Below, one piece after another: positions 2,390 through 21,530 of a stretch of 32,000 bases of DNA. The notes under the pieces are model-generated. The model was not told the origin of the DNA, ran no database searches, and saw only the letters and a program-made list of their open reading frames with translations. Each line of letters opens with the position of its first letter. The first letter of the stretch is position 1. Position numbers and translations under genes: made by a program. Source of the DNA: Methanopyrus kandleri AV19 (GTDB lineage: Archaea; JAADCQ01; Methanopyri; Methanopyrales; Methanopyraceae); assembly GCF_000007185.1 (NCBI RefSeq), contig NC_003551.1, positions 1,530,001 to 1,562,000 on the forward strand. Reading direction: 5' to 3'.

Positions 2390-2653
2390 GTGGAAGGAAT
2401 CGGCGGGGCCGCGAGTACCGAAGAGGGCGTGATACTCACCGAGCGCGGGGAGGAGTTCTTCGGCAGAACCCATGAGAGCGCGGAAGAAGCCGAAGCCATT
2501 CCTCAGGAGGCTACCTGGGTGGAGGAACCCGGAGAGTGGGAGGAGTGGAGACCCAGGAGGTTCCCGAGAGTTCCGCTACCTAGGGCGTACCTCATCGTAG
2601 CCGCCGTGGCTATCGGTCTGTTAGTGGCGGCGCTACTGTATTACGCGAGGTGA
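2390..2653 (+). CDS. Hypothetical acidic protein with C-terminal transmembrane tail
   Basis: GTG 2390 is preceded by GAGGAG at a 6-nt spacing. The body is acidic and is followed by LIVAAVAIGLLVAALLYYAR. The same frame stays open and strongly acidic upstream to 2228 but contains no ATG, GTG or TTG. Confidence 0.45.
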   Translation: MEGIGGAASTEEGVILTERGEEFFGRTHESAEEAEAIPQEATWVEEPGEWEEWRPRRFPRVPLPRAYLIVAAVAIGLLVAALLYYAR

Positions 2654-3588
2654 TCACGGACTTCCTCGGCGATAACGCGGGCGAGCTCCGGCGGCACCGA
2701 CTCCCCTACCTGGTCGTACTGCGTCTCGTACCCGCCCTCGAACACGTGGTCGTCGGGGTAACTCATCAGCCGGGCTTGCTCCCTAACGGTAAGCAGTCGG
2801 TCCTCGAACGGGTGTATGAACCTGGACCCACCCATCACCGTAGGGGCTGGCTTGAATGGGTGCAACCTGAGCCAGTTCTTGAAGCTCCCTCTAGCCCCCC
2901 TTATGACGCTCAGGGCCTCCCCCCACCTAAGGCGACGGATCCTGCGGAGCTTCCTCTTGGACAACGGGCGCAGTTCGTGATTGGGCACCTCCGAATCCGG
3001 ACTGGGGAGATCTCCGATAGCGTCCCACACGGTTTTCGGCCGTTCCACGGTGGGTTCAGGATCTATCCTCACGTTGGAGATGAAGACGCGGCGCCGGTAC
3101 GAAGGGACCCCATAATGTACCGCCTGAAGTACGTTGAAGTGGATCTCATCATACCCGGCACGTGCGAACTCTTTCCTCAGTGCTTTTTCCAAGGGCCCCT
3201 CCATAATCGCGGGGACGTTCTCCATGACGAAAACCTCGGGCTGAAGGTCACCGATAATCCTCACGAAGTGGAGCACCAACCTGCCGACGGGGTCGTCGTA
3301 GAGTCGATCCAGCGGGTTAGGTTTCCGCTCCGCGTTGGCGGCCGTGAACGGCTCGCAGGGTGGCCCGCCGATGATCACGTCCGGCTCGCCTAACTCGTCC
3401 ACGATTTCCTCCGAGTCGACCCGCTGGATGTCGCGTTCGATCACCTCGGCCTCTGGGAAATTCTCCCGGTAGGTCGCGGCCGGCGCGGGGTTGTTTTCAA
3501 CACCCCCGAGGATCTTGAACCCAGCTTCCTTGAAACCCCTGGAGAAACCGCCGGCTCCGCAGAAGAGATCCACAACTTTCGGCTTCAA
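2641..3588 (-). CDS. C5 cytosine methyltransferase (Dcm family), orphan
   Basis: Motif I DLFCGAGGFS, motif IV GGPPCEPFT, motif VI FVMENVPAI, motif VIII QAVHYGVPSYRRRVFI, motifs IX/X RLLTVREQARLMSYPDDHVF..QVGESVPPELA. Confidence 0.85.
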   Translation of the reverse strand: MKPKVVDLFCGAGGFSRGFKEAGFKILGGVENNPAPAATYRENFPEAEVIERDIQRVDSEEIVDELGEPDVIIGGPPCEPFTAANAERKPNPLDRLYDDPVGRLVLHFVRIIGDLQPEVFVMENVPAIMEGPLEKALRKEFARAGYDEIHFNVLQAVHYGVPSYRRRVFISNVRIDPEPTVERPKTVWDAIGDLPSPDSEVPNHELRPLSKRKLRRIRRLRWGEALSVIRGARGSFKNWLRLHPFKPAPTVMGGSRFIHPFEDRLLTVREQARLMSYPDDHVFEGGYETQYDQVGESVPPELARVIAEEVRDHLA

Positions 3589-3709: not shown

Positions 3710-4465
3710 GTGCGGAAGGTACCGATCGCAATAGGAATACTGGCGGTCGTAGTGATCGCGGCAGCCGCCGGCTACTACTACACGTCCTCGAACCAGCTCA
3801 CGGTGTTCGCTGCTGCGAGCCTGAAGAAGCCCCTAACTAAGCTCGCGAAGCAGTACGAAAAGGAGAAAGGCGTCAAGGTAGCCCTCAACTTCGGTCCGTC
3901 CGGAGGACTGACGGCACAGATACTACAAGGACAGAAGTGTGACCTGTTCTTCTCCGCGGATTGGAAGTACGTGGTCAAGCTCCAGAAGGCCGGTAAAACA
4001 GCGAAGACCAAGAAGTTCCTGAAGGACTACCTCGTTCTGGTGGTATCCAAGACGGGCGAGAAGAAGGGCATCAAGAGCGTCAAGGACATCACGAAGCCAG
4101 GCGTCACGGTCGCCGTGGCCGACCCGAAGGCACCGGTCGGTGAGTACACCCAGCGCGCGCTGGAGAAGCTCGGGATCTGGGACAAGATCGTGAAGAACGG
4201 TAACCTGAAGGCCAGGCCGGGTACCGTCAACCAGGTCGCTACGATGGTGAAGAATGACCAGATCGACGCCGGTTTCGTCTACCGGAGCGTGGCAGTCGGC
4301 TTCGGTCTGCCGATCGTGCAGATGTTCCCGCACTCCCTGACGGGGCCGATCATCTGGGGAGCCGCCGTCATCAAGGGAGGTAACGAACAGCTCGCGGAGG
4401 ACTTCCTGAACTACTGTCTCGAGCACATCGACGAGTTCAAGAAGTACGGGTGGAGTCCGGCATGA
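3710..4465 (+). CDS. modA: Molybdate/tungstate ABC transporter substrate-binding protein (ModA type)
   Basis: Inner GTG 3710 of ORF 3491..4465; the upstream part overlaps the methyltransferase gene. N-terminal anchor MRKVPIAIGILAVVVIAAAAG, then LTVFAAASLKKPL..ALNFGPSGGLTAQILQGQKCDLFFSAD, which is typical ModA. Confidence 0.8.
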   Translation: MRKVPIAIGILAVVVIAAAAGYYYTSSNQLTVFAAASLKKPLTKLAKQYEKEKGVKVALNFGPSGGLTAQILQGQKCDLFFSADWKYVVKLQKAGKTAKTKKFLKDYLVLVVSKTGEKKGIKSVKDITKPGVTVAVADPKAPVGEYTQRALEKLGIWDKIVKNGNLKARPGTVNQVATMVKNDQIDAGFVYRSVAVGFGLPIVQMFPHSLTGPIIWGAAVIKGGNEQLAEDFLNYCLEHIDEFKKYGWSPA

Positions 4466-5247
4466 TCGGGAGGTACGAGATCCTGAGCACCCTGTTCCCT
4501 CCTCTATTCTTCATATTCATAGTGTTCCCGCTGGTAGCGCTGGTCCTGAACCTAACGCCCCAGGGAATCGCGGAGGCCTTCAGTGACCCCTACTTCTGGT
4601 CTGCCACGTTCAACACGATACTCTGCGCCGTCGCAGCCGCCGCCGCGGGTGTGATAATCGCGATAGGGTTCGGTTACTATCATCTGTTCAAGCGAGACTC
4701 GGTGATCTACAGGGTGGCGGACTTCCTCAACGACCTGCCCATCGCCCTGCCGCACACCGTGGCCGGACTCGCGCTACTGCTGGCGTTCGGTCGCAACTAC
4801 TTCGGATGGCTGGGGGAGAACGGGCTCGCGTTCACCCTGATCGCCGTAGTCCTCGCCATGCTCTTCGTGTCGTACCCGCTAGCGGCCAGGGCCGTACAGG
4901 CGGGTGTCGAGGAGCTAGGACGTGAGCTCGTGGACGTCGCCCGTACGCTCGGTGACGAACCGCCCAAAGCCTACGTACGGGTGGTCGTGCCGGCCCTGCA
5001 GGAGGCACTGCTTGGCGGCTTCCTCCTGGGGTTCTCCCGATCCCTGAGCGAGTTCGCCGCGGTGATCATGTTCGGAGGTAACCTTCCCGGTAGGACCCAG
5101 GTACTCGCATCATACGTGTTCACCCGGGCGGAGTCCGGAGATCTAGAGGTCGCCGTCGCCGCCAGCGTGTTCTGCATGGTCCTGTCGCTGACCATGGTCG
5201 CGTTAGTGCGCTCGGTGACCGGGGGACTTCGCCGTGCTGAGGGTTGA
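4462..5247 (+). CDS. modB: Molybdate/tungstate ABC transporter permease
   Basis: ATG 4462 overlaps the modA stop (ATGA). Multiple TM helices. Permease signature LSEFAAVIMFGGNLPGRTQVL and LPIALPHTVAGLALL. The ORF track start GTG 4450 is the alternative. Confidence 0.85.
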   Translation: MIGRYEILSTLFPPLFFIFIVFPLVALVLNLTPQGIAEAFSDPYFWSATFNTILCAVAAAAAGVIIAIGFGYYHLFKRDSVIYRVADFLNDLPIALPHTVAGLALLLAFGRNYFGWLGENGLAFTLIAVVLAMLFVSYPLAARAVQAGVEELGRELVDVARTLGDEPPKAYVRVVVPALQEALLGGFLLGFSRSLSEFAAVIMFGGNLPGRTQVLASYVFTRAESGDLEVAVAASVFCMVLSLTMVALVRSVTGGLRRAEG

Positions 5248-5920
5248 GGGAGTCAAGTTCTCCTACGGAGACCGGGAAGTCCTACGCGGCGTCGACCTGG
5301 AAGTGGAGCCCGGTGAAGTACGGGTGCTCTTCGGTCCCAACGGGAGCGGTAAGTCCACGCTCCTCAAGATCGTCGCCGGTATCCTGAGGCCCGACGAGGG
5401 TCGCGTGATCATCGGAGAGGAGGACGTCACTGACCTCCCACCCGAGGAGCGCCACGTGGGGTACGTCCCACAACAGCCCGCGCTGTTCCCCCACATGACC
5501 GTCGAGGATAACATCACGTACTCCCTCCAGAACGGTCGCGGCGATCCCGACCGACTGGATGAGCTTGTGGAGCTCCTCGGACTAAAAGAACACCTCGATC
5601 GGAAGCCCGACGAGCTCAGCGGCGGGTACCAGAGCCGAGTATCGCTCGCCCGAGCCTTATTCTCCGACCCGAAAGTGATGCTCCTGGACGAGCCCCTCAG
5701 CGACGTCGACCTGGCCGTGAAGGCGGGTCTCGTTCCGAGGTTCCGCGAGGTACTGAAGGAGACGGGCATACCCGCCTTATACGTCACGCACGACCCATGG
5801 GAAGCCGAGCGTATCGGTGACTCCTTCACCGTTTTAATCGGTGGGAAGGCGGTGGACGTGAACTCCGTAGATGAGGCACTGGAGGAGCTGAAACGGGGTG
5901 TGGAAAGTGTCAAAGCGTAA
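5234..5920 (+). CDS. modC: ABC transporter ATP-binding protein (ModC-like, lacks a C-terminal Mop/TOBE domain)
   Basis: Walker A GPNGSGKST, signature LSGGYQSRVSLARAL, Walker B MLLDEPLSDVD, H-loop VTHD. Overlaps the modB end. Only 228 aa. Confidence 0.8.
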   Translation: MLRVEGVKFSYGDREVLRGVDLEVEPGEVRVLFGPNGSGKSTLLKIVAGILRPDEGRVIIGEEDVTDLPPEERHVGYVPQQPALFPHMTVEDNITYSLQNGRGDPDRLDELVELLGLKEHLDRKPDELSGGYQSRVSLARALFSDPKVMLLDEPLSDVDLAVKAGLVPRFREVLKETGIPALYVTHDPWEAERIGDSFTVLIGGKAVDVNSVDEALEELKRGVESVKA

Positions 5921-7154
5921 GTACAGGGGCTTCGTGTATACGGACGACTTGGCCAAGCCCGAAGAGTTCATCCGGTTCCTACGCCGCTTCCTCTCGCCTC
6001 CGGAGCCCGAGACCGTGGAAGTAGGGCCCGAACTCTCGGGACGTGTACTCGCGGAAGACGTCCGTGCGGAGCGCCCCTCTCCACCCTTCACCCGCTCCGC
6101 TATGGACGGATACGCCGTGAGATCCGAGGACGCCGAGCCCGGGGCCAGGTTGAAGGTCGTAGGCGAGTCGAGGATAGGAGAAGGTACCGACGTCAAAGTC
6201 GGTCCGGGAGAGGCCGTGTACGTCGACACCGGGGCTCCCGTTCCGGAGGGTGCGGACGCCGTCATCCCCGTGGAGTTCGTGGAACGCGACGGTGACGAGA
6301 TAATCGTGGAAGAAGGCGTCGACCCGGGGGATAACCTGGACCCGGCCGGCTGCTACGTCGAAGAGGGAGAAGTTCTCTACCGATCCGGACACCTCGTCGA
6401 GCCCGTGGACGTGGGCGTGATGCTCGAACACGGCGTGGAGGAGGTGGATGTCCACAGGCCCCTGCGGGTCTCGATCGTGGTAACTGGGAACGAGCTCGTC
6501 CACCGTCCATCGGAGCTGGAAAGTGAAACACAGGTGGTAGACTGCATCGGTCCCGTGCTCACCGCGGAGCTGGAGAACATGGGCTGCGTCGAGGTAGTGG
6601 GAACGAGCTTAGTCAAGGATGATCCGGGAGAGATCCGTGAGACCGTGGAGGATTACGCCGATCGCTCCGATGTGGTTCTGATCACGGGCGGATCCTCGGT
6701 GGGGGAGAGGGACCACGTCAAGGACATCCTGGACGACACGTTCGACGCCTTCATCCACGGGATCAGGGCCCGACCCGGACGTCCGTTCGGTATCGCCGCG
6801 CGGGAGGGAACAGTCGCCTTCACCCTGCCCGGGTGGCCCACGTCGTGTTATTCTACCTTCCGGGTTTGGGTGGTACCTTCGCTACTCGTGCTGGCCGGAG
6901 CGGACCCGTTGGTGGTCGGATTCGAGACCGAAGCCACCGGGATAAAGTCCAAGCGCGAGGTCGGCGTGATAGCACGCGTTCGTTTGACCTCCGACGGCGC
7001 CGAAGGATTGTCTCGGGACCGTTCCAGTCACTTCGCGCTGTTTCGGGAGACCGACGGCTTCGCCCTAGTTCCTCCTGGAGGCTCGGAGCGTGCTCTGATT
7101 CTCCCGCTGCGCGGGTTCCTCAACTTGTTCGATGAGGTAGAACGCAAGTTCTGA
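5898..7154 (+). CDS. moeA: Molybdopterin molybdenum/tungsten transferase MoeA
   Basis: Motifs FTRSAMDGYAVRSED, GAPVPEGADAVIPVE, VLITGGSSVGERDHVKDIL and PGRPFGIA. Overlaps the modC end. Confidence 0.9.
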   Translation: MWKVSKRKYRGFVYTDDLAKPEEFIRFLRRFLSPPEPETVEVGPELSGRVLAEDVRAERPSPPFTRSAMDGYAVRSEDAEPGARLKVVGESRIGEGTDVKVGPGEAVYVDTGAPVPEGADAVIPVEFVERDGDEIIVEEGVDPGDNLDPAGCYVEEGEVLYRSGHLVEPVDVGVMLEHGVEEVDVHRPLRVSIVVTGNELVHRPSELESETQVVDCIGPVLTAELENMGCVEVVGTSLVKDDPGEIRETVEDYADRSDVVLITGGSSVGERDHVKDILDDTFDAFIHGIRARPGRPFGIAAREGTVAFTLPGWPTSCYSTFRVWVVPSLLVLAGADPLVVGFETEATGIKSKREVGVIARVRLTSDGAEGLSRDRSSHFALFRETDGFALVPPGGSERALILPLRGFLNLFDEVERKF

Positions 7155-7980: not shown

Positions 7981-9282
7981 GTGGCGAGGAAAGTGATCAA
8001 GGATGTGGTCTGTCCGTTCTGTGGTACGCTGTGTGATGATCTAGAGGTGGTCGTGGAGGACGGTGAGATCGTGGAGGTACGGCATGCTTGTAGGATCGGT
8101 GCTGCGAAGTTCTTGACGGCGCAGGAGGATCATCGTCACACCGAGCCGATGATCAAAGAGAACGGAGAATGGAAGAAAATCGACTACGAAGACGCCGCAG
8201 AAGAGACCGCGAAGATGCTGGTAGAAGCTAAACTACCCGTACTCTACGGTTGGTCGGCGACGCTCGTAGAGGCGCAAGAGAAGGGTGTTGAACTGGCCGA
8301 GCTCGTCGGTGGAATCATCGACAACACGGCTTCGGTGTGACACGGACCTTCGGTACTGGGACTGCAGGACGTCGGTGTACCCAGCTGCACGCTAGGTGAG
8401 GTGAAGAACAGGGCGGACACGGTGATCTACTGGGGCAGTAACCCGATGCACGCTCACCCGCGGCACATGAGCCGTTACACCGCCTTCACCCGCGGCTTCT
8501 TCCGACCGAAGGGTCGTGAGGATCGTACTATCATCGTCGTGGACCCGCGGAAGACCGCGACGGCGCGTCTAGCCGACGTGTACATCCGCGTCCGCCCTAA
8601 CGAGGACTATGAGCTGATCAGCGCGCTCCGGGCGGCTGTTCACGGGATCGAGATCGAGCGCGAGGAGGTCGCCGGAGTGCCGACGGAGCAGATCTACGAG
8701 GTCGCTGACCTGATCAAGGAGGCCAGCTTCGGCACACTGTTCTGGGCGATGGGTCTAACGATGTCCCGGGGTCGTCATCGGAACATCGACAACGCGATCT
8801 GTCTGATCAAGGACCTGAACGAGTACACGAAGTGGACGCTGATCATGATGCGAGGCCACTACAACGTGACCGGGTTCAACGAGGTACTGGCGTGGACGAC
8901 CGGATACCCGTACGCCGTGGACTTCAGCCGTGGGTACCCGCGGTACAACCCGGGTGAGACGAGCACCGTGGACCTACTAACCCGCGGCGAGGTCGACGCC
9001 ATGATGGTCATTGCCAGTGATCCGGGTGCGCACTTCCCGCGGAAGGCTGTGGAGCACATGGCTAGGATCCCGCTCGTGTGCGTGGACCCGCACTGGACGC
9101 CGACCGCCGAACTCGCTGACCTGTACGTGCCCGTAACCATCGCCGGCATCGAATGGGAAGGCACCGCCTACCGAATGGACTCAGTACCCATCAGGATGCG
9201 CAAGGTCGTCGAACCACCCGAAAGCATGCTCAACGACGTAGAATTCCTCGAAATGGTCATAGAAAAGGTCGAGGAGATGTAA
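7981..9282 (+). CDS. fwdB: Tungsten formylmethanofuran dehydrogenase subunit B, selenocysteine-containing (UGA at 8338-8340 decoded as Sec)
   Basis: ORFs 7981..8340 and 8401..9282 are in the same frame. They are separated only by TGA plus 20 sense codons. N-terminal Fe-S motif CPFCGTLCDD..C. The TGA lies in DNTASV-U-HGPSVLG, at the metal-ligand Cys/Sec position of this family. A SECIS-like structure follows the stop. This corresponds to the Sec isoform described as fwuB in Methanopyrus. Confidence 0.85.
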
Positions 9283-12780: not shown

Positions 12781-14628
12781 TTGACGAGGACGGCTTACGT
12801 GCTGCTAGCCCTGCTGGCGGCGCTGGTCGGACAGGCATCGGCGGCATCGGTAGGTTCGCAGCTGACCCTCGACACGGCGATGCAGTGGGACCAACAGCAG
12901 AACAAGTACGTGGATTCCGACGTGGCCGCCAGGGACGGTTACTACTACCAGGTCAAAGGGCCGGCCGTGGCGGTGGACAGCACGGGTACGGTACTGGTAG
13001 CCTGGGAGGAATGGTCCGAGAACGGCAACGTAGTCGGTAAGATAGGACTGAGAACACCATCTGGTAACGCAGTCTACGTGACCCCGGAGCAGGATTGCGT
13101 CTACTTCGCCCCGGCCCTGACGAGCTACGATCAGGGTAAGTTCCTCCTGGCCGTGACGGAAGTGCCGCAGAGCAACTTGGTCGCGCAGGATTACGGCAAG
13201 CTGCTAGTGTACAAGGTCGACGTCTCCAACGGCCAGATTACGGTGGGTTCCTCACCGGTACAGGTAGCCGATAACGCCGCCTACCCGCACGTGGTGTACC
13301 TGGGGTCGGACAACGACAACAGGTACGTGGCGATCGTGTACGAGCGGTGGAACGGAGAGACTGGCGACGTCGAACTGCAGGTGCTCAAGATCGACACGAA
13401 CGGGAACATCATCCCGGTCTTGAGTCAGCCGCTTGTTATCGCGGAAGGGGTGTGTAAGGACTACGTTAAGGGCGACGTTCACTACTTCGGGCACGCCAGA
13501 CCCGTGGCGTCGCTGTACCAAGAGGGTGACTCCAAGTACTTGATAGTGGTGCTGACGAACTACTCGCAAGCTACTCCCAACGTGAGCGAGTGGGGTTTCT
13601 ACGGCGAGTGGAAGGGGTGCAAGGTGGAGGCGTACGTGGTGGATCTCCCCGATTTCTCAACGATCGGTGGGTTAAGCTCGGAGAACGTGCACAAGGTACA
13701 AGGATCACTGTCGGCTTCCGAGGACACCAACGAGTGCCCGTGGGTATGCGACAACGTGGTAGTGTATCGGGTCGGATCGCTCTGGGGAGGGATGTCGGGG
13801 GACACCACGATCCCGGACATCAACGCCGCACTGATAGTGAAGTCGAGAGACTCCTGGACGTTCTCGTCGGACACCACGATCTACCGCCGTATCTACACGC
13901 AGACGGGTCCCGCCGTAGCCAGGGTCTACACGAACAATGACGATAAGACGCCGTACTACTTGGCGGTGTTCGCGGATAACAGCGGGGGTTTCGGTAAGGA
14001 GCGGTTAACGGGCGTCCTGTTCCGCGTCAAGGACGGGAAGATCCAGGTGATCGCGCAGTACGACCTCACGGGGTTCGGTAGTGGGTACTATTACTACTGT
14101 CCGACCGTAGCCACGGTCAAGAGCAAGTACGGAGATGCCGAGCTGGTTGTGGCCTGCTACAAGGGTGACAGCGGGAGCGGCGGCCATAACATCGGCGACG
14201 CCGTCATGCTGACGGTAAGCATCGGTGATCCCGTCGATGAGTTCATGTCGTCGGCCGCCGAGCTGCTCAACAGCCTGACTGGTACCGTGGACGTCGTGAA
14301 CAACGCGATCTTCAACAGCTACTCGGGGCTCAAGAAGAAGGTTTCCGACCTGGAGAAGAAGTCGAACGAGCTAACGCAGACCACTCAGGAGCTGCAGAAC
14401 AAGGTCTCCACACTCGAACAGGGTCAGGAGGAGCTGAAGCAGGAAGTAAGCAAGATCTCACAGGAGGTGAGTGGCCTGAAGGGCAGCATAGACGAGTGCA
14501 AGAACACCGTAGAAAACCTCGAAGAGCGCGTGAAGAAGCTCGAGCGTAGGAAGATCGCGGTATCACCGATGGCGGTACTGGCCGCCGCGTTGACGCTGGC
14601 GGCGTACAGGAGGTACGGCCGGCAATAG
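12781..14628 (+). CDS. Cell-surface protein: signal peptide, six-fold repeat domain, coiled-coil stalk, C-terminal membrane anchor
   Basis: TTG start with GAGGG upstream and AAAATTAAAAG (12735-12745) as a TATA candidate. Signal peptide MTRTAYVLLALLAALVGQASA. A motif of the form P-x-V/L-A..(6-10)..Y-h-h-V-h recurs six times (GPAVAVDSTGTVLVAW, FAPALTSYDQGKFLLAV, YPHVVYLGSDNDNRYVAIV, ARPVASLYQEGDSKYLIVV, GPAVARVYTNNDDKTPYYLAV, CPTVATVKSKYGDAELVVA). A heptad-rich Q/E/K segment spans about 14290-14560. TM tail IAVSPMAVLAAALTLAAY-RRYGRQ. Confidence 0.7.
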   Translation: MTRTAYVLLALLAALVGQASAASVGSQLTLDTAMQWDQQQNKYVDSDVAARDGYYYQVKGPAVAVDSTGTVLVAWEEWSENGNVVGKIGLRTPSGNAVYVTPEQDCVYFAPALTSYDQGKFLLAVTEVPQSNLVAQDYGKLLVYKVDVSNGQITVGSSPVQVADNAAYPHVVYLGSDNDNRYVAIVYERWNGETGDVELQVLKIDTNGNIIPVLSQPLVIAEGVCKDYVKGDVHYFGHARPVASLYQEGDSKYLIVVLTNYSQATPNVSEWGFYGEWKGCKVEAYVVDLPDFSTIGGLSSENVHKVQGSLSASEDTNECPWVCDNVVVYRVGSLWGGMSGDTTIPDINAALIVKSRDSWTFSSDTTIYRRIYTQTGPAVARVYTNNDDKTPYYLAVFADNSGGFGKERLTGVLFRVKDGKIQVIAQYDLTGFGSGYYYYCPTVATVKSKYGDAELVVACYKGDSGSGGHNIGDAVMLTVSIGDPVDEFMSSAAELLNSLTGTVDVVNNAIFNSYSGLKKKVSDLEKKSNELTQTTQELQNKVSTLEQGQEELKQEVSKISQEVSGLKGSIDECKNTVENLEERVKKLERRKIAVSPMAVLAAALTLAAYRRYGRQ

Positions 14629-16113
14629 GACGGGTACGCCCCTCTTGGACTTCTCTTGTCTTTTGTTCCCCTCTGTTTCTGTTCCTCCGGACACGGTCTC
14701 ACGCTCGGTCTTGGATACTGATTCGTTCCCGTTCGGTTTCGTTATTTTTCCGTAAAACAGCTCCGGGTTCAGGTAGGCCTCGAGCGCCCGCATCGCGTAG
14801 GCCGTGGCCCATATCGACGCCGGTTCGTAGTGGGCCCCTTCGGTCGTGGACGTCACATCCCGAGCCGGCCACGGCCAGGCTCCGTACCACTCCGGGTGTT
14901 CGGTCCCACGGTACCGCTGGGATACGAGCCACTCGACGGTGGCGTGGAGGTTGTACTCCGGGTCCGTCACGAGATCCGAGAGCTTGCGCTTACCGCCTGG
15001 CGTCTCGATCTCCACGTCCGTCGCGACATCGAACCACAGCGCCTTCAGCAGCACGAGGCTCAGGACGTTCCCCGTGACGGTCGTCTCCGGCGATCCCTGC
15101 GCTTCTAGATAAGCCGACGAGTACGCCCAGGCGGGGCCCCGACCGTGACTTCCTTCCACCCACGTTACTCCGGCTTCCTCACCGTTGAAGAGCCACTCGA
15201 TGCCCCTGCGGATGGCGTTCAGGATCCGATCGCGGTCCACGTGGAGCCCGAGCCGGTCCGCCTTCAAGTAGACGTCTATCAGAGTCGACAGGATGTATGC
15301 CTGAGTGTCCGCCGAGTACTCTTGGCACATCAGCCCGGAGTACCAAGATCCGTCCGGGTTCTGACGCTCCAGCAGCCAGGAGACTCCCCGCTCGATGGCG
15401 CTTTTGATCCGATCCACCGCACTGTCGTCGAGGTTCAGCAGGTCACGGCGTTCCAACGCCATCAACAACGCCGCGACCGCCGCACGGGTGTGCCACGGAG
15501 CTCCTTCCCGGGCTTCCTCCCTCTTCCTACTCCAGCCACCGTCCTCCAGCTGTTGGTCCAGGAGCCAGGTCAGTCCCCTGCGTACGGCGCTCACGAGCTC
15601 CCCGTATTCCCCACCCGACTCGTGTCGCCGCTCGATCTCGTGGATCAGCAGCATGATCGCAACCGCGGTGTCGCTGGTTAAACTGCCCGAGTGGGTTATG
15701 CCCCTGTACGTCCACGCCTGTCCCCAGCCGCCGTCCTCGTTCTGGTTGTCGAGTACCCACCTGACGGCCTCCTCGGAAGCCTTAGACCACTCCGACGTCG
15801 GCGTCATCGCCGGCACACCGGCGGGCACCCTATCGGCTAGTAATCCAGCGCGCTCCGCGCTTTCCAGCGTGGGATACACCAGCGAGATCGCCTTCAGCTC
15901 GTATCCGAACGTCAGCTGAGGGTTCCACAAGTGAGCCGAAGCCAAGTAGGGACCGCCGCGATCCGTGGTGATGAACCACCATACGGTGCCCGCTTTCACG
16001 GCGTCCGCGCACTCCGTCTGGAGCTCCTTATACGGCTCCGTATTCTTCCAGTCCAGCGCCGTCGTCGGTGCGGCGGTTATCAGAACGGCTATCGTGGCGA
16101 CTAGGACGCGCAC
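14563..16113 (-). CDS. Secreted prenyltransferase / terpene-cyclase-like (alpha-alpha toroid repeat) protein
   Basis: Inner GTG 16113 of ORF 14563..16239, with GGGGGAG upstream, gives the signal-like N-terminus MRVLVATIAVLITAAPTTA. Repeats NQNEDGGWGQAW, QQLEDGGWSRK and RQNPDGSWYSG are spaced as in prenyltransferase/squalene-cyclase repeats. The C-terminus is a low-complexity charged tail. Confidence 0.7.
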   Translation of the reverse strand: MRVLVATIAVLITAAPTTALDWKNTEPYKELQTECADAVKAGTVWWFITTDRGGPYLASAHLWNPQLTFGYELKAISLVYPTLESAERAGLLADRVPAGVPAMTPTSEWSKASEEAVRWVLDNQNEDGGWGQAWTYRGITHSGSLTSDTAVAIMLLIHEIERRHESGGEYGELVSAVRRGLTWLLDQQLEDGGWSRKREEAREGAPWHTRAAVAALLMALERRDLLNLDDSAVDRIKSAIERGVSWLLERQNPDGSWYSGLMCQEYSADTQAYILSTLIDVYLKADRLGLHVDRDRILNAIRRGIEWLFNGEEAGVTWVEGSHGRGPAWAYSSAYLEAQGSPETTVTGNVLSLVLLKALWFDVATDVEIETPGGKRKLSDLVTDPEYNLHATVEWLVSQRYRGTEHPEWYGAWPWPARDVTSTTEGAHYEPASIWATAYAMRALEAYLNPELFYGKITKPNGNESVSKTERETVSGGTETEGNKRQEKSKRGVPVLLPAVPPVRRQRQRGGQYRHR

Positions 16114-16214
16114 GCGCTCGCTCCCCCAAACCTTTAATCTCGATGAACCGGACCGTAACGAACCTACAACGTACGGTAGATGAAGAAAATAAAAGTTGAG
16201 TCCGTATCGGCGCG
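16114..16214. promoter_or_regulatory. Shared 101-bp divergent promoter region between the toroid-repeat gene and the CobN-like gene
   Basis: Two AT-rich boxes: TTTAATCT (about 16133-16140; reads AGATTAAA on the minus strand) and GAAAATAAAAG (about 16184-16194). Each lies 20-30 bp from its respective start codon. Confidence 0.35.
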
Positions 16215-19200
16215 ATGGGGGCCGACACCTCCGTGGCACCGGTCTTGATCCTCGTCATGGTGTTCCTAGCGGTCTCGGTCCCCGCGCACTCGCTGGACAT
16301 TGTGATATTCGGGAACGCCGCGAAGGGATCACCCGAGGAGATCCGTGCTGTGGAGGAGCGTGTGAAGGAAGACCTGGGTGTGGACGTTCGAATTCACGTG
16401 CACAACGTGCTCGTCAGCTGGTCCGATCAGAGCGCTCCGGTGGACTTCGACTCGCTGGCCCACGACATCGAACGCTCCGAGATCGTCGCCCTAGACAACA
16501 TGGGACCCATGCCGACACCGTTTGCGATGGAGTTATCGGAGCGCGTCTTGGGTAAACCCGCCTCCTCGATGCAGGAGTTCCTCAGAGAGCTCGCGGAGAG
16601 GAAGCGGATAGTGGCCTACGTGACAGGCGACCAGCACGATTTCGTGATCTTAGGGTCCGGCTGCCGGCGTATAGTCGACGGTACCGCCGCGGTCGTTAAC
16701 TTGGGCTTCCTGTTCCGGTTTTCCTCGGATCTGACACCGGTCATAGAGTTCCTGGTGTGGCTCGCGGATCCGTCGGTACCGGCGGAGAGACTACACCTCT
16801 CCGACGTACGGATATCGTCCGCTGCCGTCTACGTGCCGGGCCGAGGTTGGGAGTTCCCCGAAGTATCTGGAGAAGCTCTCGAGATGTCGTACCACCGGTG
16901 GCTTCACGCGCTAGAGGGTCGGGATCGCACCACCGAACCACTCTGGACGAAGGTCCGCCTGAGCTCGATACCATCGTGGGTGAAAGCCATCCGGGAAGCA
17001 TCCTCGCAGTTCTTCCGGTCCCTGTGGCTCCCGAACCGACGCGTCGTGGTGGTGCTGGACTACATCGACGCACTATACAAGGGTGAGAGGGATCTCGTGG
17101 AGAAGCTCACCGATACCGTGTATCGGGAGGTCTCCCGGGAGTTCCAGGACGTGACGGCGATAGCCGTTCTGTGCGACGGGAACATGGTCTCGCCGATCGA
17201 GGCGCTGCTCGGGTTGAAAGACGCCGGATACGACATCGCGGCCGTGGTCTCCCTGTGGGCCTTCACGCTCGATTACCCCAAACCCGGTACTTGGGCACTC
17301 GAAGGAATCGACGCCCCGATCATCAAGGCAGTTTACCCGTTCTGGGCCAATTGGATGGACGAACCACAGCGCTACTTGAACATGAACGAGGGGGACCCGG
17401 AGTCCGGTCGCGTGGGCGCGCTCTTCGAGTGGGGTTACCAGGTGATCGGCGGGCCCGAACCCGAGGGTGCCTTCTGGTTCAAGATGATCGCGCTCAAGGA
17501 GCGCGACCAAATGATGGTGTTCCCGCTGGAGGACATGATCGAGGACGTGGCCCGGATGGTGGCGGGGTTCCTGAGGCTGCGGTACTTGCCCGAGTCGGAG
17601 AAACGGGTAGCGTTCGTGCTGTACTGTTACCCGCCGGGACGCGGTGAGATCGGCGCCTCTTACCTGGACGTGTTCCGGTCCCTGGTGAGGATATTCGAGG
17701 CGTTGGCGGAACGGGGCTACGATCTTGGCCCCGCGACCTCCCTGTACCGGAAGTTGGCGGAGCTCCGACGGGAAGACCCGAAAGCCGCTGAAGAGATGGA
17801 GAAACGTCTCGCGCACGCTTTGATGGCGGCGTCCGATCTCGTACTGAAGAACGTGGGTCCGTGGGCTAAGGGTGAGCTAGCCGGGATGGTGCGGCTGTAC
17901 CGAGGCGGGCGGGCCGAGGTGAGCGTCGACTGGAACGGGAAGTCGATGAAGGTGATCGTGGACCACGGTGTGCTCCGGTGGATCGACGTGGACGGCTCGT
18001 CGTACGTGCTCGGGACCGTGAGCGAGGATCAACTAGTCCCGGTGGAGGCGCTGGAACGCTGGTACCGGGAGGATGTGGTGCGGAGGTTCGAGTATTACCT
18101 CTCGCTGCTGACCGGTGACGATCCGGAGACCGAGCGGGCTCGGAAGTCCCTGATGGAGTGGATGCGGGCGATCGAGGAGAAGTTCGGACCGCCCACGGAC
18201 AACCGCGGGATCATGAGGTACGGCCTGTATTATGTCATCCCGGCCCTGCGACTGGGCAACGTGGTCGTGATGCTTCAGCCGGTACGTGGTTGGTCCGGAA
18301 GCCCCGAGCTGGTCTACCACTCCCCGGACCTACCCCCGCAATGGCAGTACGTCGCCGCGTACGAATGGTTGCGCAGGGTCTTCCGGGCGGACGCCGTGGT
18401 CCACGTGGGTACGCACGGAACCCTCGAGTGGCTGCCGGGTCATCAGGTCGGTCTTCTGGGCGTGGACTGGCCGCACGTGCTGCTGCCCGACGTGCCCCAT
18501 GTGTACCTTTACATCGTCAGCAACCCGGGCGAAGCGATGGTCGCCAAGTACCGCTCCGGTCCGATCCTCCTCACGCACTTGTCGCCGCCGTGGGGCTACT
18601 TCAAGGACCTGGGTAAGTACGGGGAGCTGGAGCGTGAGCTCACGAGGTACTTCCAGATGAAGAGCTTCGGAGGAGACCCTCACGTGCTGGAGGAGCTGAG
18701 GCGGCGGATCGTCGAGACGGCGGAGCGTCTGGGACTGCTGAAGGACGTCGTCAACATGATATTCGCGGAGCGGAAGGAACCGCCGCCCGAGAACCCGAAG
18801 GAGTGGGCGATGGATCATATCGAGGAGTTCATAGACAAGCTCCACGATTTCCTACTGGACCTCGCGTTGAGGAACGTCGCGTACGGCCTGCACGTATACG
18901 GTGAGGACGTAGACGAGGACGTGGCCGTAGAGCAGGCCGCGGCGCTCGCGTCCTCCCGTGTCGCCCCGGTGTTCGCGTACTACGCCGGGCTGATCGACTC
19001 ACCGGACCAGGAGGCGCTGAACCGGCTGCAGTCCGATAGACCCGACATATTCGCGTGGTTCAAGCGCGAACTCCGGGAGTGTCTGAGGGATATCCTGCGG
19101 ACCGTTCTAAAGTACCCCGATTTAACCTCTCAGCTGGAACGTTACGTGGAACTGAAAGATCGGGAAGAATACTACGGCGAACCACCCGACGGCGTCGAAG

Positions 19201-21530
19201 GTCCGGGAAGGGAGGCGAAACGCCTGTTCTGGCAGGTATCCGATAGGCTCACGATCTTGGCGCAGGAGGCCATCCTGAGGTATTTCCACGGCCGGCGGAA
19301 TGACCCTGACCACGAGCACCTCCTCGCCGAGGCCGTGGCCGACCTGTACAGGATCTACGTACACTACCGCGACTCGGGCCGGACCGAGCTGGAGGAACTG
19401 CTCGCCGCCCTCGACGGCAGGTTCGTCCCGCCGGGACTACTGGGCGAGCCGATGTGGAACACGAAGGTCCTACCCACCGGACGGGACGGCTACCCGATAG
19501 ACCCCTCCCAAATGCCCACGCCGGAGGCGTGGGACGTCGCACGCAAGCTAGTCGATCAGATGCTCGCGGACTACTACCTAAGACACGGTAGGTGGCCGGA
19601 GGCCGTGGGCGTGGTCCTATGGGGTATTCACGAACTCTGCACCGGCGGTCTAGGCATCGCGGAGGTCCTGTACCTGCTGGGCGTGAGACCCGTGTGGAAC
19701 CCGGACACCGGGCAGGTCACCGGGGTCGAGCTGATCCCGCTGGACGAGCTGAAGGTGAAGGTCGGTAACCGGTGGATCAACCGACCGAGGATCGACGTGG
19801 TGGTGTGGGCCGCCCTGCACATGGAGGACCCGCTGAAGCTACTGACTGAGGCTTACTATCTGGTCTCCCATGTGGACGAACCCACCGACGTGAACTACCG
19901 TCGGAAGCATTATCTGGAGCTGAAGCCGCGGTTAGTGAAGGAACTTGAGAAGAGCGGGATGTCACCCGAAGATGCCGAGAAAGAGGCCGACGTGATCGCG
20001 TCCTCGGGGTTCTTCGCGCAACCACCCGGGGTCTACGCGGGTACCGGGGCTTGCGACATCGTGGAGCACGCCTGGACCGACGTCTCGGGCACGGTCGGGC
20101 TCTTCGAGGACCCCGAGACGGCGCTGAAGAACTTCGAGCAGAGATTTTGGGAGAAGTTCAGGATCACCTGTGAGAGCCGGATGGCGTACGTCTACACGGC
20201 CGAGGCCCGGATCCTGACGATCCGAGAGGGGAACAAGGTCAGGGTCGTCGTGCTGAGGACGAGCACGGACCGCGTCTACCACGCGATCCCGTCGGTCGAG
20301 GCGTTCCGGTACCTGATGTCCAAGGTCGACGTCGTGGTTCACAGCGTCGTGAACACGTGGGGATTGATCGACACGGACGACTTCTACGACTGGGTCGGTG
20401 GGATGGCACTGTATGCGACGCACGCCGCGGGCCACGCGCCGGAAGTGTACATCGGGAACGCCGTCGATCCGACCGCCGCAAGGACGTTGACGGGTTACCA
20501 GCAGCTGGTGGGTGAGGTCTACACGAAGCTACTCAGCGAGTCCTGGTGGAAGGCCATGCTGGAGCACGGTGACTACGGCTGGTCCCGGATCGTCAGGAGG
20601 ATCGAGTTCCTGGCCGGGTGGGGGATCACGGTCCCGTCACTGCGTCCCTACCTGAACTCCGTGTACACCGAGGTGTTCAAGGCTGTGGTACAGTGGATCA
20701 GCCAGGCGCCTCCCCGCACCGAGTACGGGTGGGCGGCCGTGGTGAGCACGATCGCGTGGTTCGTGGAGCTCGCTCGGACGGGTGTGTGGAAGCCGGACTC
20801 GAAGACGCTGGCACAGGCCGCGAAGGTCCTACTGGAGACGATGGCCAAACACGGGCCCGCGACGTGTCACCACACCAGTCCCAACCCGGCGTTAGTGGTG
20901 TACGCCGCTCGGGTCCTCCTGGAGGCCGGTTACTCCTACTCCGAGGTCAAGCGGCTCCTGTCCAAGGTGATGAAGTGGTACGCCAAGCTGGACAACCCGG
21001 AGATCGTCCGGGAGATCGAGAGGTTAACGAACCTGGTGATGACCAGGGCGGCGAGTGAGAGGTCGGCCAGGGCCGCCACGGCGTCCCGTTCGGCGGCGAC
21101 CTCGTCATCGGCGTACACCGGCGTTACTGTCTCCCGGACGGTTTCGTCGTTCACCGGACCGGGACTGCCCGGAGGGAGGGGAAGTGCTCAGGTCGTAGTG
21201 GGGTTGTTGGGATCGGTGTTACGGGGTGTTGCACGCGGAACGGTGCTCCCGGAGATCGGATACTGGACGGGTCCCTCGAGATACACCGGTCACGCGAAGG
21301 CAGGTTCGAGGGTCGGGAAGACCGAGCGCAGTACCGAACGCGAGTCGAAGGCGACGCAGACGTTCACCAGGACCTCCCCGCCCTCCTCGGCCCCTAAGAT
21401 GATCTGGGAATGGGTCGCCGCCCTGCTCCTGACACTACTGTTCCTCCTGGTGTGGAGGATCCGACCGACGGGTCCCAGACCGCGGGCTACGTGGGTTACG
21501 CCAGCAACCGTTCCGCCAGTCGCCGCGTGA
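16215..21530 (+). CDS. CobN/ChlH-family chelatase-like protein, 1771 aa, with N-terminal hydrophobic leader and C-terminal membrane anchor
   Basis: CobN core motifs: ADAVVHVGTHGTLEWLPGHQVGL, LYIVSNPGEAMVAKYRSGPILLTHLSPP, LPTGRDGYPIDP, VVLWGIHELCTGG and the C-terminal WWKAMLEHGDYGW. N-terminus MGADTSVAPVLILVMVFLAVSVPAHS. An S/T/A-rich linker (..AATASRSAATSSSAYTGVTVSRTVSS..) precedes the TM segment WEWVAALLLTLLFLLVW. Confidence 0.85.
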   Translation: MGADTSVAPVLILVMVFLAVSVPAHSLDIVIFGNAAKGSPEEIRAVEERVKEDLGVDVRIHVHNVLVSWSDQSAPVDFDSLAHDIERSEIVALDNMGPMPTPFAMELSERVLGKPASSMQEFLRELAERKRIVAYVTGDQHDFVILGSGCRRIVDGTAAVVNLGFLFRFSSDLTPVIEFLVWLADPSVPAERLHLSDVRISSAAVYVPGRGWEFPEVSGEALEMSYHRWLHALEGRDRTTEPLWTKVRLSSIPSWVKAIREASSQFFRSLWLPNRRVVVVLDYIDALYKGERDLVEKLTDTVYREVSREFQDVTAIAVLCDGNMVSPIEALLGLKDAGYDIAAVVSLWAFTLDYPKPGTWALEGIDAPIIKAVYPFWANWMDEPQRYLNMNEGDPESGRVGALFEWGYQVIGGPEPEGAFWFKMIALKERDQMMVFPLEDMIEDVARMVAGFLRLRYLPESEKRVAFVLYCYPPGRGEIGASYLDVFRSLVRIFEALAERGYDLGPATSLYRKLAELRREDPKAAEEMEKRLAHALMAASDLVLKNVGPWAKGELAGMVRLYRGGRAEVSVDWNGKSMKVIVDHGVLRWIDVDGSSYVLGTVSEDQLVPVEALERWYREDVVRRFEYYLSLLTGDDPETERARKSLMEWMRAIEEKFGPPTDNRGIMRYGLYYVIPALRLGNVVVMLQPVRGWSGSPELVYHSPDLPPQWQYVAAYEWLRRVFRADAVVHVGTHGTLEWLPGHQVGLLGVDWPHVLLPDVPHVYLYIVSNPGEAMVAKYRSGPILLTHLSPPWGYFKDLGKYGELERELTRYFQMKSFGGDPHVLEELRRRIVETAERLGLLKDVVNMIFAERKEPPPENPKEWAMDHIEEFIDKLHDFLLDLALRNVAYGLHVYGEDVDEDVAVEQAAALASSRVAPVFAYYAGLIDSPDQEALNRLQSDRPDIFAWFKRELRECLRDILRTVLKYPDLTSQLERYVELKDREEYYGEPPDGVEGPGREAKRLFWQVSDRLTILAQEAILRYFHGRRNDPDHEHLLAEAVADLYRIYVHYRDSGRTELEELLAALDGRFVPPGLLGEPMWNTKVLPTGRDGYPIDPSQMPTPEAWDVARKLVDQMLADYYLRHGRWPEAVGVVLWGIHELCTGGLGIAEVLYLLGVRPVWNPDTGQVTGVELIPLDELKVKVGNRWINRPRIDVVVWAALHMEDPLKLLTEAYYLVSHVDEPTDVNYRRKHYLELKPRLVKELEKSGMSPEDAEKEADVIASSGFFAQPPGVYAGTGACDIVEHAWTDVSGTVGLFEDPETALKNFEQRFWEKFRITCESRMAYVYTAEARILTIREGNKVRVVVLRTSTDRVYHAIPSVEAFRYLMSKVDVVVHSVVNTWGLIDTDDFYDWVGGMALYATHAAGHAPEVYIGNAVDPTAARTLTGYQQLVGEVYTKLLSESWWKAMLEHGDYGWSRIVRRIEFLAGWGITVPSLRPYLNSVYTEVFKAVVQWISQAPPRTEYGWAAVVSTIAWFVELARTGVWKPDSKTLAQAAKVLLETMAKHGPATCHHTSPNPALVVYAARVLLEAGYSYSEVKRLLSKVMKWYAKLDNPEIVREIERLTNLVMTRAASERSARAATASRSAATSSSAYTGVTVSRTVSSFTGPGLPGGRGSAQVVVGLLGSVLRGVARGTVLPEIGYWTGPSRYTGHAKAGSRVGKTERSTERESKATQTFTRTSPPSSAPKMIWEWVAALLLTLLFLLVWRIRPTGPRPRATWVTPATVPPVAA

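Follow-up and report, generated by a model that had tools for sequence, protein, structure and literature searches.

Three described types of protein frame the CobN/ChlH/HmuS superfamily. CobN of the CobNST complex (PDB 7c6o, 9uk9) is a cytoplasmic protein of about 1230-1260 amino acids (aa) that needs CobS/CobT and ATP, and ChlH/BchH (PDB 4zhj) is soluble and needs ChlI/ChlD and ATP. HmuS is exported, membrane-anchored at both ends and ATP-independent (PMC12583661, PMC13227078); it strips iron from haem using a reductant, and the H538A substitution abolishes haem turnover (PMC12583661). The Bacteroidota hmu operon comprises hmuY, hmuR, hmuS (CobN-like), hmuT (hypothetical membrane protein), hmuU (MotA/TolQ/ExbB) and hmuV (DUF2149), and hmuS is strongly induced under iron or haem limitation (PMC10434189, PMC11681262). 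The paper on the HmuS structure (PMC12583661, 2025) also records that many archaeal 'CobN' proteins cluster apart, are not cob-associated and have an unclear function, so the orphan status of methanogen CobN paralogues raised in an earlier note on this DNA is already in print. Here we analyze a 32-kb stretch of the Methanopyrus kandleri genome (the window) that contains three neighbouring genes, A, B and C, the last of which encodes a giant CobN-like protein with predicted export and anchor signals. We tentatively read C as an ATP-independent extracytoplasmic enzyme for tetrapyrrole metal insertion, removal or binding, acting alongside exported A and B.

Open reading frames (ORFs) for all three genes are present in the window, and each product is predicted to be a Sec-exported envelope protein, as judged from hydropathy and conservation among orthologues:

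12781..14628, plus strand: gene A, 615 aa, exported stalked beta-propeller (hydropathy, orthologue alignment, AlphaFold2 and Foldseek)
14563..16113, minus strand: gene B, 516 aa, secreted alpha/alpha toroid (Pfam, AlphaFold2, Foldseek and motifs)
16215..21530, plus strand: gene C, 1771 aa, exported, C-terminally anchored CobN/ChlH/HmuS-superfamily protein

Within C, hydropathy reveals hydrophobic segments at aa 6-24 and 1729-1747 only. The earlier note had described C as a CobN-family protein with a leader, an S/T-rich linker and a C-terminal anchor, and Pfam, hydropathy and composition bear this out:

16215-16292: signal peptide (aa 1-26)
17007-20807: Pfam CobN homology (about aa 265-1531)
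18402..18440, plus strand: superfamily motif HVGTHGTLEWLPG with H734 (alignment to 9d26, 7c6o and 4zhj)
18531..18533, plus strand: E773 in SNPGEAMVAK, which aligns with Synechocystis ChlH E660
20370..20402, plus strand: domain-V motif DTDDFYDWVGG, acidic and CobN-like
20835..21134, plus strand: clade-specific extension (aa 1541-1640), with invariant C1551-H-H-T...N1557 at 20865-20885
21135..21395, plus strand: basic S/T/G/R-rich linker (aa 1641-1727)
21399..21530, plus strand: transmembrane anchor MIWEWVAALLLTLLFLLVW (aa 1729-1747), Arg-rich tail RIRPTGPRPR... and stop

The public call for C starts six codons later, at 16233, giving 1765 aa under the NCBI name 'cobaltochelatase subunit CobN' (P0001, 100% identical). 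Its orthologues have textbook-like leaders, for example MRPTLAAVLVAFLMLAGGARA/L, and signal peptides with A-x-A-type sites persist across orthologues at 41-67% identity. At the other end, the orthologues keep an IW.WV..LLLT helix followed by basic residues. In M. kandleri the linker is 27.6% S/T/N/Q with an isoelectric point of 11.5, and four arginines follow the anchor. By the positive-inside rule this basic tail is cytoplasmic and the body lies outside, giving a predicted topology in which the body of C is extracytoplasmic and tethered by its C-terminal helix.

Membership of the superfamily is secure: Pfam CobN-Mg_chel (PF02514) matches C at 1e-181, with 606.8 bits against a cut-off of 24.5. 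Compared with solved structures, C is roughly equidistant from CobN (276 bits, 275.9 before rounding, the best solved match), ChlH (240 bits) and HmuS (226 bits, 225.7 before rounding). It misses every NCBIfam CobN/BchH cut-off by twofold or more (TIGR02257, 366 against 822; NF004645, 415 against 1619; TIGR02025, 399.9 against 829). About 240 aa at its N-terminus, the part to compare with the HmuS head/neck haem ligands Met-79 and His-254, align with no solved chain; in a comparison of the N-terminal fragment, HmuS matches at aa 375-483 only (E 0.13). The CHHT extension has no solved homologue among PDB sequences. A search of 1.84 billion representatives with it returned six true matches, all of Methanopyri type, and three weaker ones that are repeat or low-complexity noise.

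Residue-level alignment equates H734 of C, which reads HVGTHG at the superfamily HxG(T/A/K)HG position, with HmuS H538 and with the equivalent histidine of CobN. C shares the catalytic glutamate with ChlH (E773 for E660, a position that differs from E to D between entries 4zhj and 6yt0) along with the fold, but ChlH differs at the domain-V motif. There C is closer to CobN: the CobN counterpart is DSDDYFQYHGG, and the two have HxGxHG, E773 and the D-x-D-D-aromatic...GG pattern in common, although C is anchored and far longer. Residues D1388, D1389, G1395 and G1396 are conserved throughout the superfamily. By alignment, C thus keeps the residues that correspond to catalytic HmuS H538 and ChlH E660 together with a CobN-type acidic patch.

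To place C among its relatives, we scanned one genome per species with a C profile and obtained 79 loci, compared as 34 from an exported clade and 44 others. Within this sample, the exported clade is restricted to Methanopyri and Methanobacteriales (Methanobrevibacter, Methanosphaera, Methanobacterium, Methanothermobacter, Methanoflexus), and the others come from Methanomassiliicoccales, Methanomicrobiales, Methanosarcinales, Firmicutes and further taxa. Exported-clade proteins are 1450-1975 aa long, against about 1250 aa for the others. A C-terminal anchor is present in 30/34 versus 2/44, an N-terminal hydrophobic leader in 22/28 with a complete 5′ end versus 2/39, and the CHHT extension in 34/34 versus 0/44. 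The clade is defined by a signal leader, a C-terminal anchor, the motif D[TCS]DD[FY][YT]DW.GG and the C-H-H-T extension, all of which C has, and in each group at least 90% of members share H734 (alignment of 70 relatives). The same 70-protein alignment sets the groups apart at C D751, near HxGTHG, where at least 93% of exported-clade members have Asp and 90% of the cytoplasmic group have Cys. In a rough neighbour-joining tree the Methanopyri occupy a deep branch of their own, beside the exported clade of Methanobacteriales. One contig labelled 'uncultured Acholeplasmatales bacterium' (CAJOOI010000130, locus L028) carries a Methanobrevibacter-type exported CobN-like gene whose product matches L024 and L025 in 29/30 of its last residues; this contig is probably mis-binned.

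Gene neighbourhoods separate the two groups as clearly. A ChlI/ChlD-type AAA+/VWA neighbour occurs in 0/34 exported-clade loci and in 27/44 of the others (Fisher P = 1e-9). No homologue of ChlI/ChlD-type proteins, ExbB, DUF2149 or DUF2162 was found in any frame of the window, and no tetrapyrrole-related or cob genes lie near A-B-C. The predicted absence of an AAA+ partner therefore holds for the window and across the clade. Recurrent exported-clade neighbours are giant beta-helix/NosD/Ig surface proteins (15 loci), DUF1002 (6 loci) and further CobN-like paralogues; those of the cytoplasmic group are FecCD/ABC/binding-protein genes of BtuCDF type and CbiZ. The cytoplasmic CobN-like paralogues, many of them archaeal and likewise of unassigned function, thus share the superfamily with C but lack the leader, anchor and CHHT extension, have Cys at the D751 position and sit beside ChlI/D and CbiZ genes.

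These comparisons bear on the simplest alternative, that C is a standard CobN, a cytoplasmic cobaltochelatase that serves cobamide synthesis, and that its terminal hydrophobic segments are irrelevant. The public name, the strong PF02514 match, the CobN-like acidic motif and a body composition that is not clearly extracellular would all suit it. We nevertheless find it scarcely credible, as C falls far under the NCBIfam CobN/BchH cut-offs, no CobS/CobT, ChlI/ChlD or cob genes are nearby, and the whole clade preserves both the leader and the basic-tailed anchor, the relatives beside ChlI/D, CbiZ and BtuCDF-type genes being the cytoplasmic ones. Methanogens synthesize cobamides via CbiX, the anaerobic route, and F430 via CfbA; CbiX is listed for Methanothermobacter.

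A second kind of neighbour connects the exported clade to HmuS. At five exported-clade loci, co-directional DUF2162, MotA/ExbB and DUF2149 genes come immediately after the CobN-like gene. A Methanosarcinales contig has this trio behind an exported CobN-like gene too, and in Polaromonas ExbB and DUF2149 genes precede a CobN-like gene, overlapping by 4 bp:

L010: 263-7449
L011: 8462-15111
L012: 8882-15121
L013: 6910-16752
L081: 13719-20071
L027: the Methanosarcinales contig
L080: 7975-13078 (Polaromonas)

The linkage of exported CobN-like genes to ExbB/DUF2149 genes spans both domains. Members linked to this cassette are scattered among the exported forms in the rough tree. To our knowledge archaea have no outer membrane and no TonB receptors, and with no outer membrane to serve, the proton-channel pair of the Methanobacteriales relatives would serve the CobN-like protein itself or import of its product, rather than a TonB receptor.

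The resemblance of C to HmuS and BtuS (PDB 9d26; PMC12583661, PMC6460266, PMC13227078) can be stated in two parts. All are exported, anchored and without an AAA+ partner, all have the essential HxGTHG histidine, and archaeal clade-mates of C adjoin MotA/ExbB and DUF2149 genes, the hmuU and hmuV families. The precedent drawn in the earlier note stands, HmuS itself being exported, anchored and ATP-independent, but C does not have the HmuS-defining motif LSLDHxxEFMGG, which aligns with LIDTDDFYDWVGG in C: HmuS His-1209 and Glu-1212 are replaced by Asp and Asp. C further differs in having the extra CHHT extension and no Met-rich insertion, and its locus has no hmuY or hmuR, lies in an organism without an outer membrane and includes A and B, which are unrelated to Hmu proteins.

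Gene A encodes, as the earlier note had it, a stalked protein, whose head AlphaFold2 and Foldseek predict to be a propeller:

12781-12846: signal peptide (aa 1-22)
12949-14223: six-bladed propeller (aa 57-481)
14239-14544: single long helix or coiled-coil stalk (aa 487-588)
14551-14619: C-terminal transmembrane anchor (aa 591-613), then RRYGRQ

The hydrophobic segments of A are aa 7-25 and 591-609 only, and A-x-A-type cleavage sites are kept in its orthologues, the M. kandleri protein reading ...GQASA/AS. The AlphaFold2 model, built with nine orthologues, has a mean predicted local distance difference test (pLDDT) score of 76, above 90 across most of the head; it is all-beta at aa 57-481, then runs as one continuous helix from 487 to 588 and closes with a further helix at 597-613. 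If fully helical, the stalk of about 100 residues would be about 15 nm long. Foldseek retrieves six-bladed sialidase, neuraminidase and paramyxovirus-attachment propellers (best 5hx0_B, E 5.9e-8, target template-modelling (TM) score about 0.5, identity 7-13%). A resembles the stalked sialidase-fold and paramyxovirus heads in its propeller head, coiled-coil stalk and membrane anchor but differs in its low identity and TM score and in its C-terminal anchor; no sialidase motif was noticed in A, where no search aimed at one was made. Pfam and NCBIfam return only coiled-coil noise; the likeness to SlaB-type surface-layer (S-layer) anchors is a weak match to the SlaB model confined to the coiled coil. 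Homologues of A are detectable only in Methanopyrus-like genomes.

Gene B is the secreted alpha/alpha toroid protein that had been proposed, with a match to Pfam SQHop_cyclase_C (1.4e-16) and an N-terminal hydrophobic segment, the only one found by hydropathy:

16054-16113: signal peptide (aa 1-20)
14749-16053: toroid (aa 21-455) with three QW-like repeats, followed by a disordered charged tail

The public call starts at GTG 16113, giving MRVLVATIAVLITAAPTTA/LDW; the open frame extends to 16239. AlphaFold2 models aa 21-455 as an alpha/alpha toroid (pLDDT 82.6) and the tail as disordered, and Foldseek finds generic toroids at TM 0.4-0.5 (class II terpene cyclases such as drimenyl-diphosphate synthase, complement TED, GH76 and GH15). 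B shares the toroid and QW-like repeats with terpene cyclase beta/gamma domains and these other families, but it is secreted and ends in a Pro/Arg tail. It scores below all NCBIfam cyclase equivalog cut-offs (TIGR01787, 62.5 against 322.7), and neither B nor its orthologues contain a DxDD motif. We considered B as a terpene cyclase or a thioester protein and rejected both, on the lack of DxDD and CGEQ and the generic toroid matches. Without DxDD, the modelled toroid is probably a binding module rather than a cyclase. Close relatives of B were found in Methanopyri only. Long B paralogues with added C-terminal domains and similar tails occur in Methanopyrus sp. (P0048, 724 aa) and at L091 5560-9582 (up to 1340 aa), and the toroid family has thus expanded within Methanopyri.

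The families of A, B and C recur together in Methanopyri in three arrangements. M. kandleri, Methanopyrus sp. KOL6, the 67%-identical L002, L087 and L088 have DUF2097, A (plus), B (minus), C (plus) and aspartate kinase. In 'Methanopyri archaeon' loci L003, L004, L007 and L092, where C is 46-50% identical, the order is DUF2097, B (minus), A (plus), C (plus). A GC-rich lineage with C 41% identical has A' (minus), B' (plus), about 9 kb of sequence, a toroid paralogue (minus) and C (plus), on a map merged from L091 and L005, which overlap at 99.8% identity over 7 kb. In this third arrangement A' shares 47% identity with A and B' shares 48% with B, and the toroid paralogue next to C is 27% identical to B. 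The three families span no more than 16 kb, although their order has been rearranged two or more times. In both the Methanopyrus and L005 lineages C has a toroid gene diverging from it, despite different flanks. The DUF2097 and aspartate-kinase flanks are also conserved in several Methanopyri-type loci of the first two arrangements. The synteny expected by the earlier note is therefore present within Methanopyri, in three orders, and stops there: no Methanobacteriales relative of C has A or B next to it. Given this absence and the conserved flanks, the evidence for a physical A-B-C complex is suggestive, not strong.

On this evidence C might act alone or with unlinked membrane partners, A and B forming a separate pair that shares a surface-gene island with C by inherited synteny. 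Homologues of A and B stand next to C in Methanopyri-type loci only, the conserved DUF2097 and aspartate-kinase flanks suggest that the whole block is syntenic, and Methanobacteriales relatives of C sit among unrelated giant beta-helix/Ig surface proteins. In the GC-rich lineage the A'-B' pair is about 9 kb away from C, and the toroid next to C is the less similar paralogue. Such independence is less easily squared with an order rearranged at least twice while the families remain close, or with the toroid gene immediately divergent from C in the Methanopyrus and L005 lineages, and we regard it as somewhat unlikely.

Under the reading we prefer, C would hold a tetrapyrrole in the conserved cavity and insert a divalent metal into it or withdraw one from it, and like HmuS would need no AAA+ motor of ChlI/ChlD or CobS/CobT type. 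Candidate substrates would be corrinoid, F430-type compounds, sirohydrochlorin or haem, with either direction of reaction. The Cys-His-His extension, next to the membrane linker, could be a site of metal hand-off or relay, and the Methanopyri partners A and B may serve as ligand-capture or envelope-positioning subunits in a pseudomurein or surface-layer envelope.

Several observations weigh against this reading. The predicted topology comes from hydropathy and conservation, not from a dedicated predictor, and the body of C is closer in composition to cytosolic neighbours than that of A is; amino-acid composition, tried as an export test, gives a clear answer for A, an intermediate one for B and no information on C. 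C lacks both the second axial histidine and the glutamate of HmuS, so a bis-His mechanism of HmuS type cannot be assumed, and in place of a Met-rich insertion it has at most 7 Met per 120-aa window and 37 in the body. The hmuTUV-like cassette was not found in the 32-kb M. kandleri window. In the L005/L091 organism about 9 kb separate C from the orthologous A-B pair, and the Methanobacteriales relatives lack A and B beside C, as described above.

The remaining points against it come from expression in M. marburgensis, although the detection of cobN2 (164 kDa) in its proteomes counts in favour (PMC12350162). In the same data cobN1 (143 kDa) rises about 300-fold under Ni limitation. By synteny we identified cobN2 as the exported-clade orthologue, with pcrA2-helicase, AAA_16 and CRISPR-associated neighbours as in L006 and L026; cobN1 has the size of the cytoplasmic group. 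Fe limitation lowers the cobN2 protein about 4-8-fold, from 4-6e7 to 0.3-0.9e7; its level also declines under Ni limitation and is steady under H2/CO2 limitation (PMC12350162). A link of the exported clade to Ni limitation was accordingly rejected: the strongly induced protein is cobN1, and cobN2 falls. In the tables of the same study cobN1 adjoins a gene for an 'FwdC-related protein' (PMC12350162), and M. kandleri A-B-C lies just downstream of fwdC and DUF2097; the two proximities may be coincidence or old synteny.

These levels speak most directly to a strict HmuS analogy, in which C would be a starvation-induced scavenger stripping Ni, Co or Fe from environmental metallotetrapyrroles. It has in its favour the HmuS precedent, the hmuU/hmuV-family cassette beside relatives, the candidate Cys-His-His metal site and the induction of cobN1 under Ni limitation. 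But cobN1 is a different paralogue of cytoplasmic-group size. Fe limitation induces hmuS but not the exported-clade protein of M. marburgensis, and the drop of the latter when Fe or Ni is limiting speaks against scavenging induced by starvation, for that organism at least. Further points against are that no metal-regulator site was found in the B-C spacer, that the neighbouring transporter genes have a tungsten/molybdenum and Fwd context and that C lacks the second histidine specific to HmuS. The metal-scavenging idea of the earlier note is weakened to this extent, and we consider the scavenger very unlikely.

The constitutive level of cobN2, with no induction by metal limitation, would equally suit an explanation in which A, B and C are structural parts of the envelope (a surface layer or a membrane-pseudomurein spacer) and the CobN fold is a scaffold without tetrapyrrole chemistry. 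The head, coiled-coil stalk and anchor of A follow the layout of archaeal surface-layer anchors, with the weak SlaB coiled-coil match. The exported clade is confined, in the sample, to two pseudomurein-walled orders, and the Methanobacteriales relatives stand among adhesin-like surface proteins. A pure scaffold, however, needs none of the catalytic His, Glu and acidic patch, which are invariant across clades less than 30% identical; the additional invariant Cys-His-His resembles a metal site, and several relatives are operon-coupled to the proton-channel pair and a predicted transporter. We judge a purely structural role unlikely.

B has no normal anchor and ends instead in a Pro/Arg tag that recurs in relatives:

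14587..14640, minus strand: C-terminal Pro/Arg tag GVPVLLPAVPPVRRQRQR of B, with invariant P494, P498, P501, R504 and R505
L003 602-2203: Pro/Arg-tagged gene
L004 2319-3911: Pro/Arg-tagged gene
L005 4209-5999: Pro/Arg-tagged gene
L086 4395-6050: Pro/Arg-tagged gene
L091 9685-10656: Pro/Arg-tagged gene

All B orthologues close with the consensus G-[VL]-P-x(2,3)-P-x-[VI]-P-x(0,2)-P-x-R-R-[QRK]-R. In a scan of 361 ORFs from Methanopyri-type loci, B orthologues and one unrelated Metallophos protein were the only products to end in the tag; it was seen as well on a 323-aa protein in L091. In the third arrangement, two genes between B' and the toroid paralogue bear it. The tag's hydrophobic stretch, about 11 residues long and rich in proline, is not a normal transmembrane helix. 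NCBIfam sorting-domain models (PGF-, PEF-, VPXXXP- and CGP-CTERM) gave no match to the tails of A, B or C; the L005 toroid tail matches the CGP-CTERM model below threshold (E 0.03, 14.6 bits against 21). The Pro/Arg tag may direct sorting or attachment, as a signal not described before.

Another type of C-terminal signal is built from [KR]-[IV]-P-V, then a hydrophobic helix, then a terminal RRR. It is present in the tail of A (window 14551-14625), at L091 3186-5702 and 5560-9582 and at L005 7049-8689, and the A' and B' proteins of one genome carry it in almost the same form (KIPVLPVLALAVLAVPALRRR). This signal resembles the three-part layout of archaeosortase substrates, the match being the sub-threshold one to CGP-CTERM.

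Genes B and C diverge from a shared spacer, as had been noted, with the following features:

16114-16214, unstranded: 101-bp divergent B-C spacer (119 bp if the public C start at 16233 is used)
about 16183-16192: A/T-rich TATA-like element AAAATAAAAG before C
about 16134-16139, read on the minus strand: TTTAAT before B

Methanopyrus sp. KOL6 keeps only the C-proximal half of this spacer, and a search of it for a regulator site gave no significant inverted repeat and no metal-regulator site. At their 3′ ends, the convergent genes A and B overlap by 66 bp (14563-14628), and C overlaps the longest aspartate-kinase ORF, also convergent, by 35 bp (21496-21530).

The wider surroundings are those of other pathways. 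On the 5′ side of A-B-C lie ABC transporter, MoeA, formylmethanofuran dehydrogenase (FwdA and FwdC-type) and DUF2097 genes; on the 3′ side of C, on the opposite strand, are aspartate kinase, PIN-KH ATPase, HisI and HisRS. An ABC permease, an ATPase and MoeA (window 4450-7154, plus strand), directly 5′ of the fwd genes, form a tungsten/molybdenum cofactor context unrelated to C. The FwdB-type gene (7981-9282, plus strand) is a single frame broken by a TGA at 8338-8340, in NTASV*HGPS, where related enzymes carry a metal-ligand Cys, and gene callers make two ORFs of it. In all likelihood this TGA encodes selenocysteine in the known selenium-dependent formylmethanofuran dehydrogenase of M. kandleri. 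At 2641-3588 (minus strand) there is a C-5 cytosine DNA methylase gene.

Parts of this picture were already known: databases list A, B and C, though by names that are generic or misleading, and exported CobN-family enzymes are established (HmuS, BtuS), with archaeal homologues flagged in print. To call the module undescribed, as the earlier note did, was therefore too strong. In the literature on Methanopyrus and Methanobrevibacter, we found no description of exported archaeal CobN-like proteins. New here are an exported archaeal clade with its own motif set, systematically apart from AAA+ partners; the linkage of exported proteins, across both domains, to hmuU/hmuV-family genes; and the Methanopyri-specific propeller and toroid partners.

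Methanogens hold several 'CobN' paralogues that no pathway needs, and the cobaltochelatase annotation of the exported-clade genes is probably wrong. Proteins that are predicted to be exported and anchored, that keep the catalytic residues, lack AAA+ partners and in several genomes are operon-linked to the hmuU/hmuV families give a testable hypothesis on extracellular tetrapyrrole or metal handling in archaea. Together with the two C-terminal tags, which had gone unrecognised, A and B point towards envelope biology of a hyperthermophile that is still to be explored. In a stronger form, which we think decidedly unlikely, the exported CobN-like proteins of pseudomurein-walled methanogens would be metal-exchange machines of a class of their own, acting on tetrapyrroles outside the cytoplasm, powered or served by MotA/ExbB-DUF2149 instead of an AAA+ motor, with a Cys-His-His relay, and in Methanopyri complexed with A and B, which would capture the ligand at the wall. 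If true, the methanogen 'CobN' paralogues, orphans for so long, would gain a function, and Bacteroidota hmuU and hmuV would serve HmuS, not the TonB-dependent receptor.

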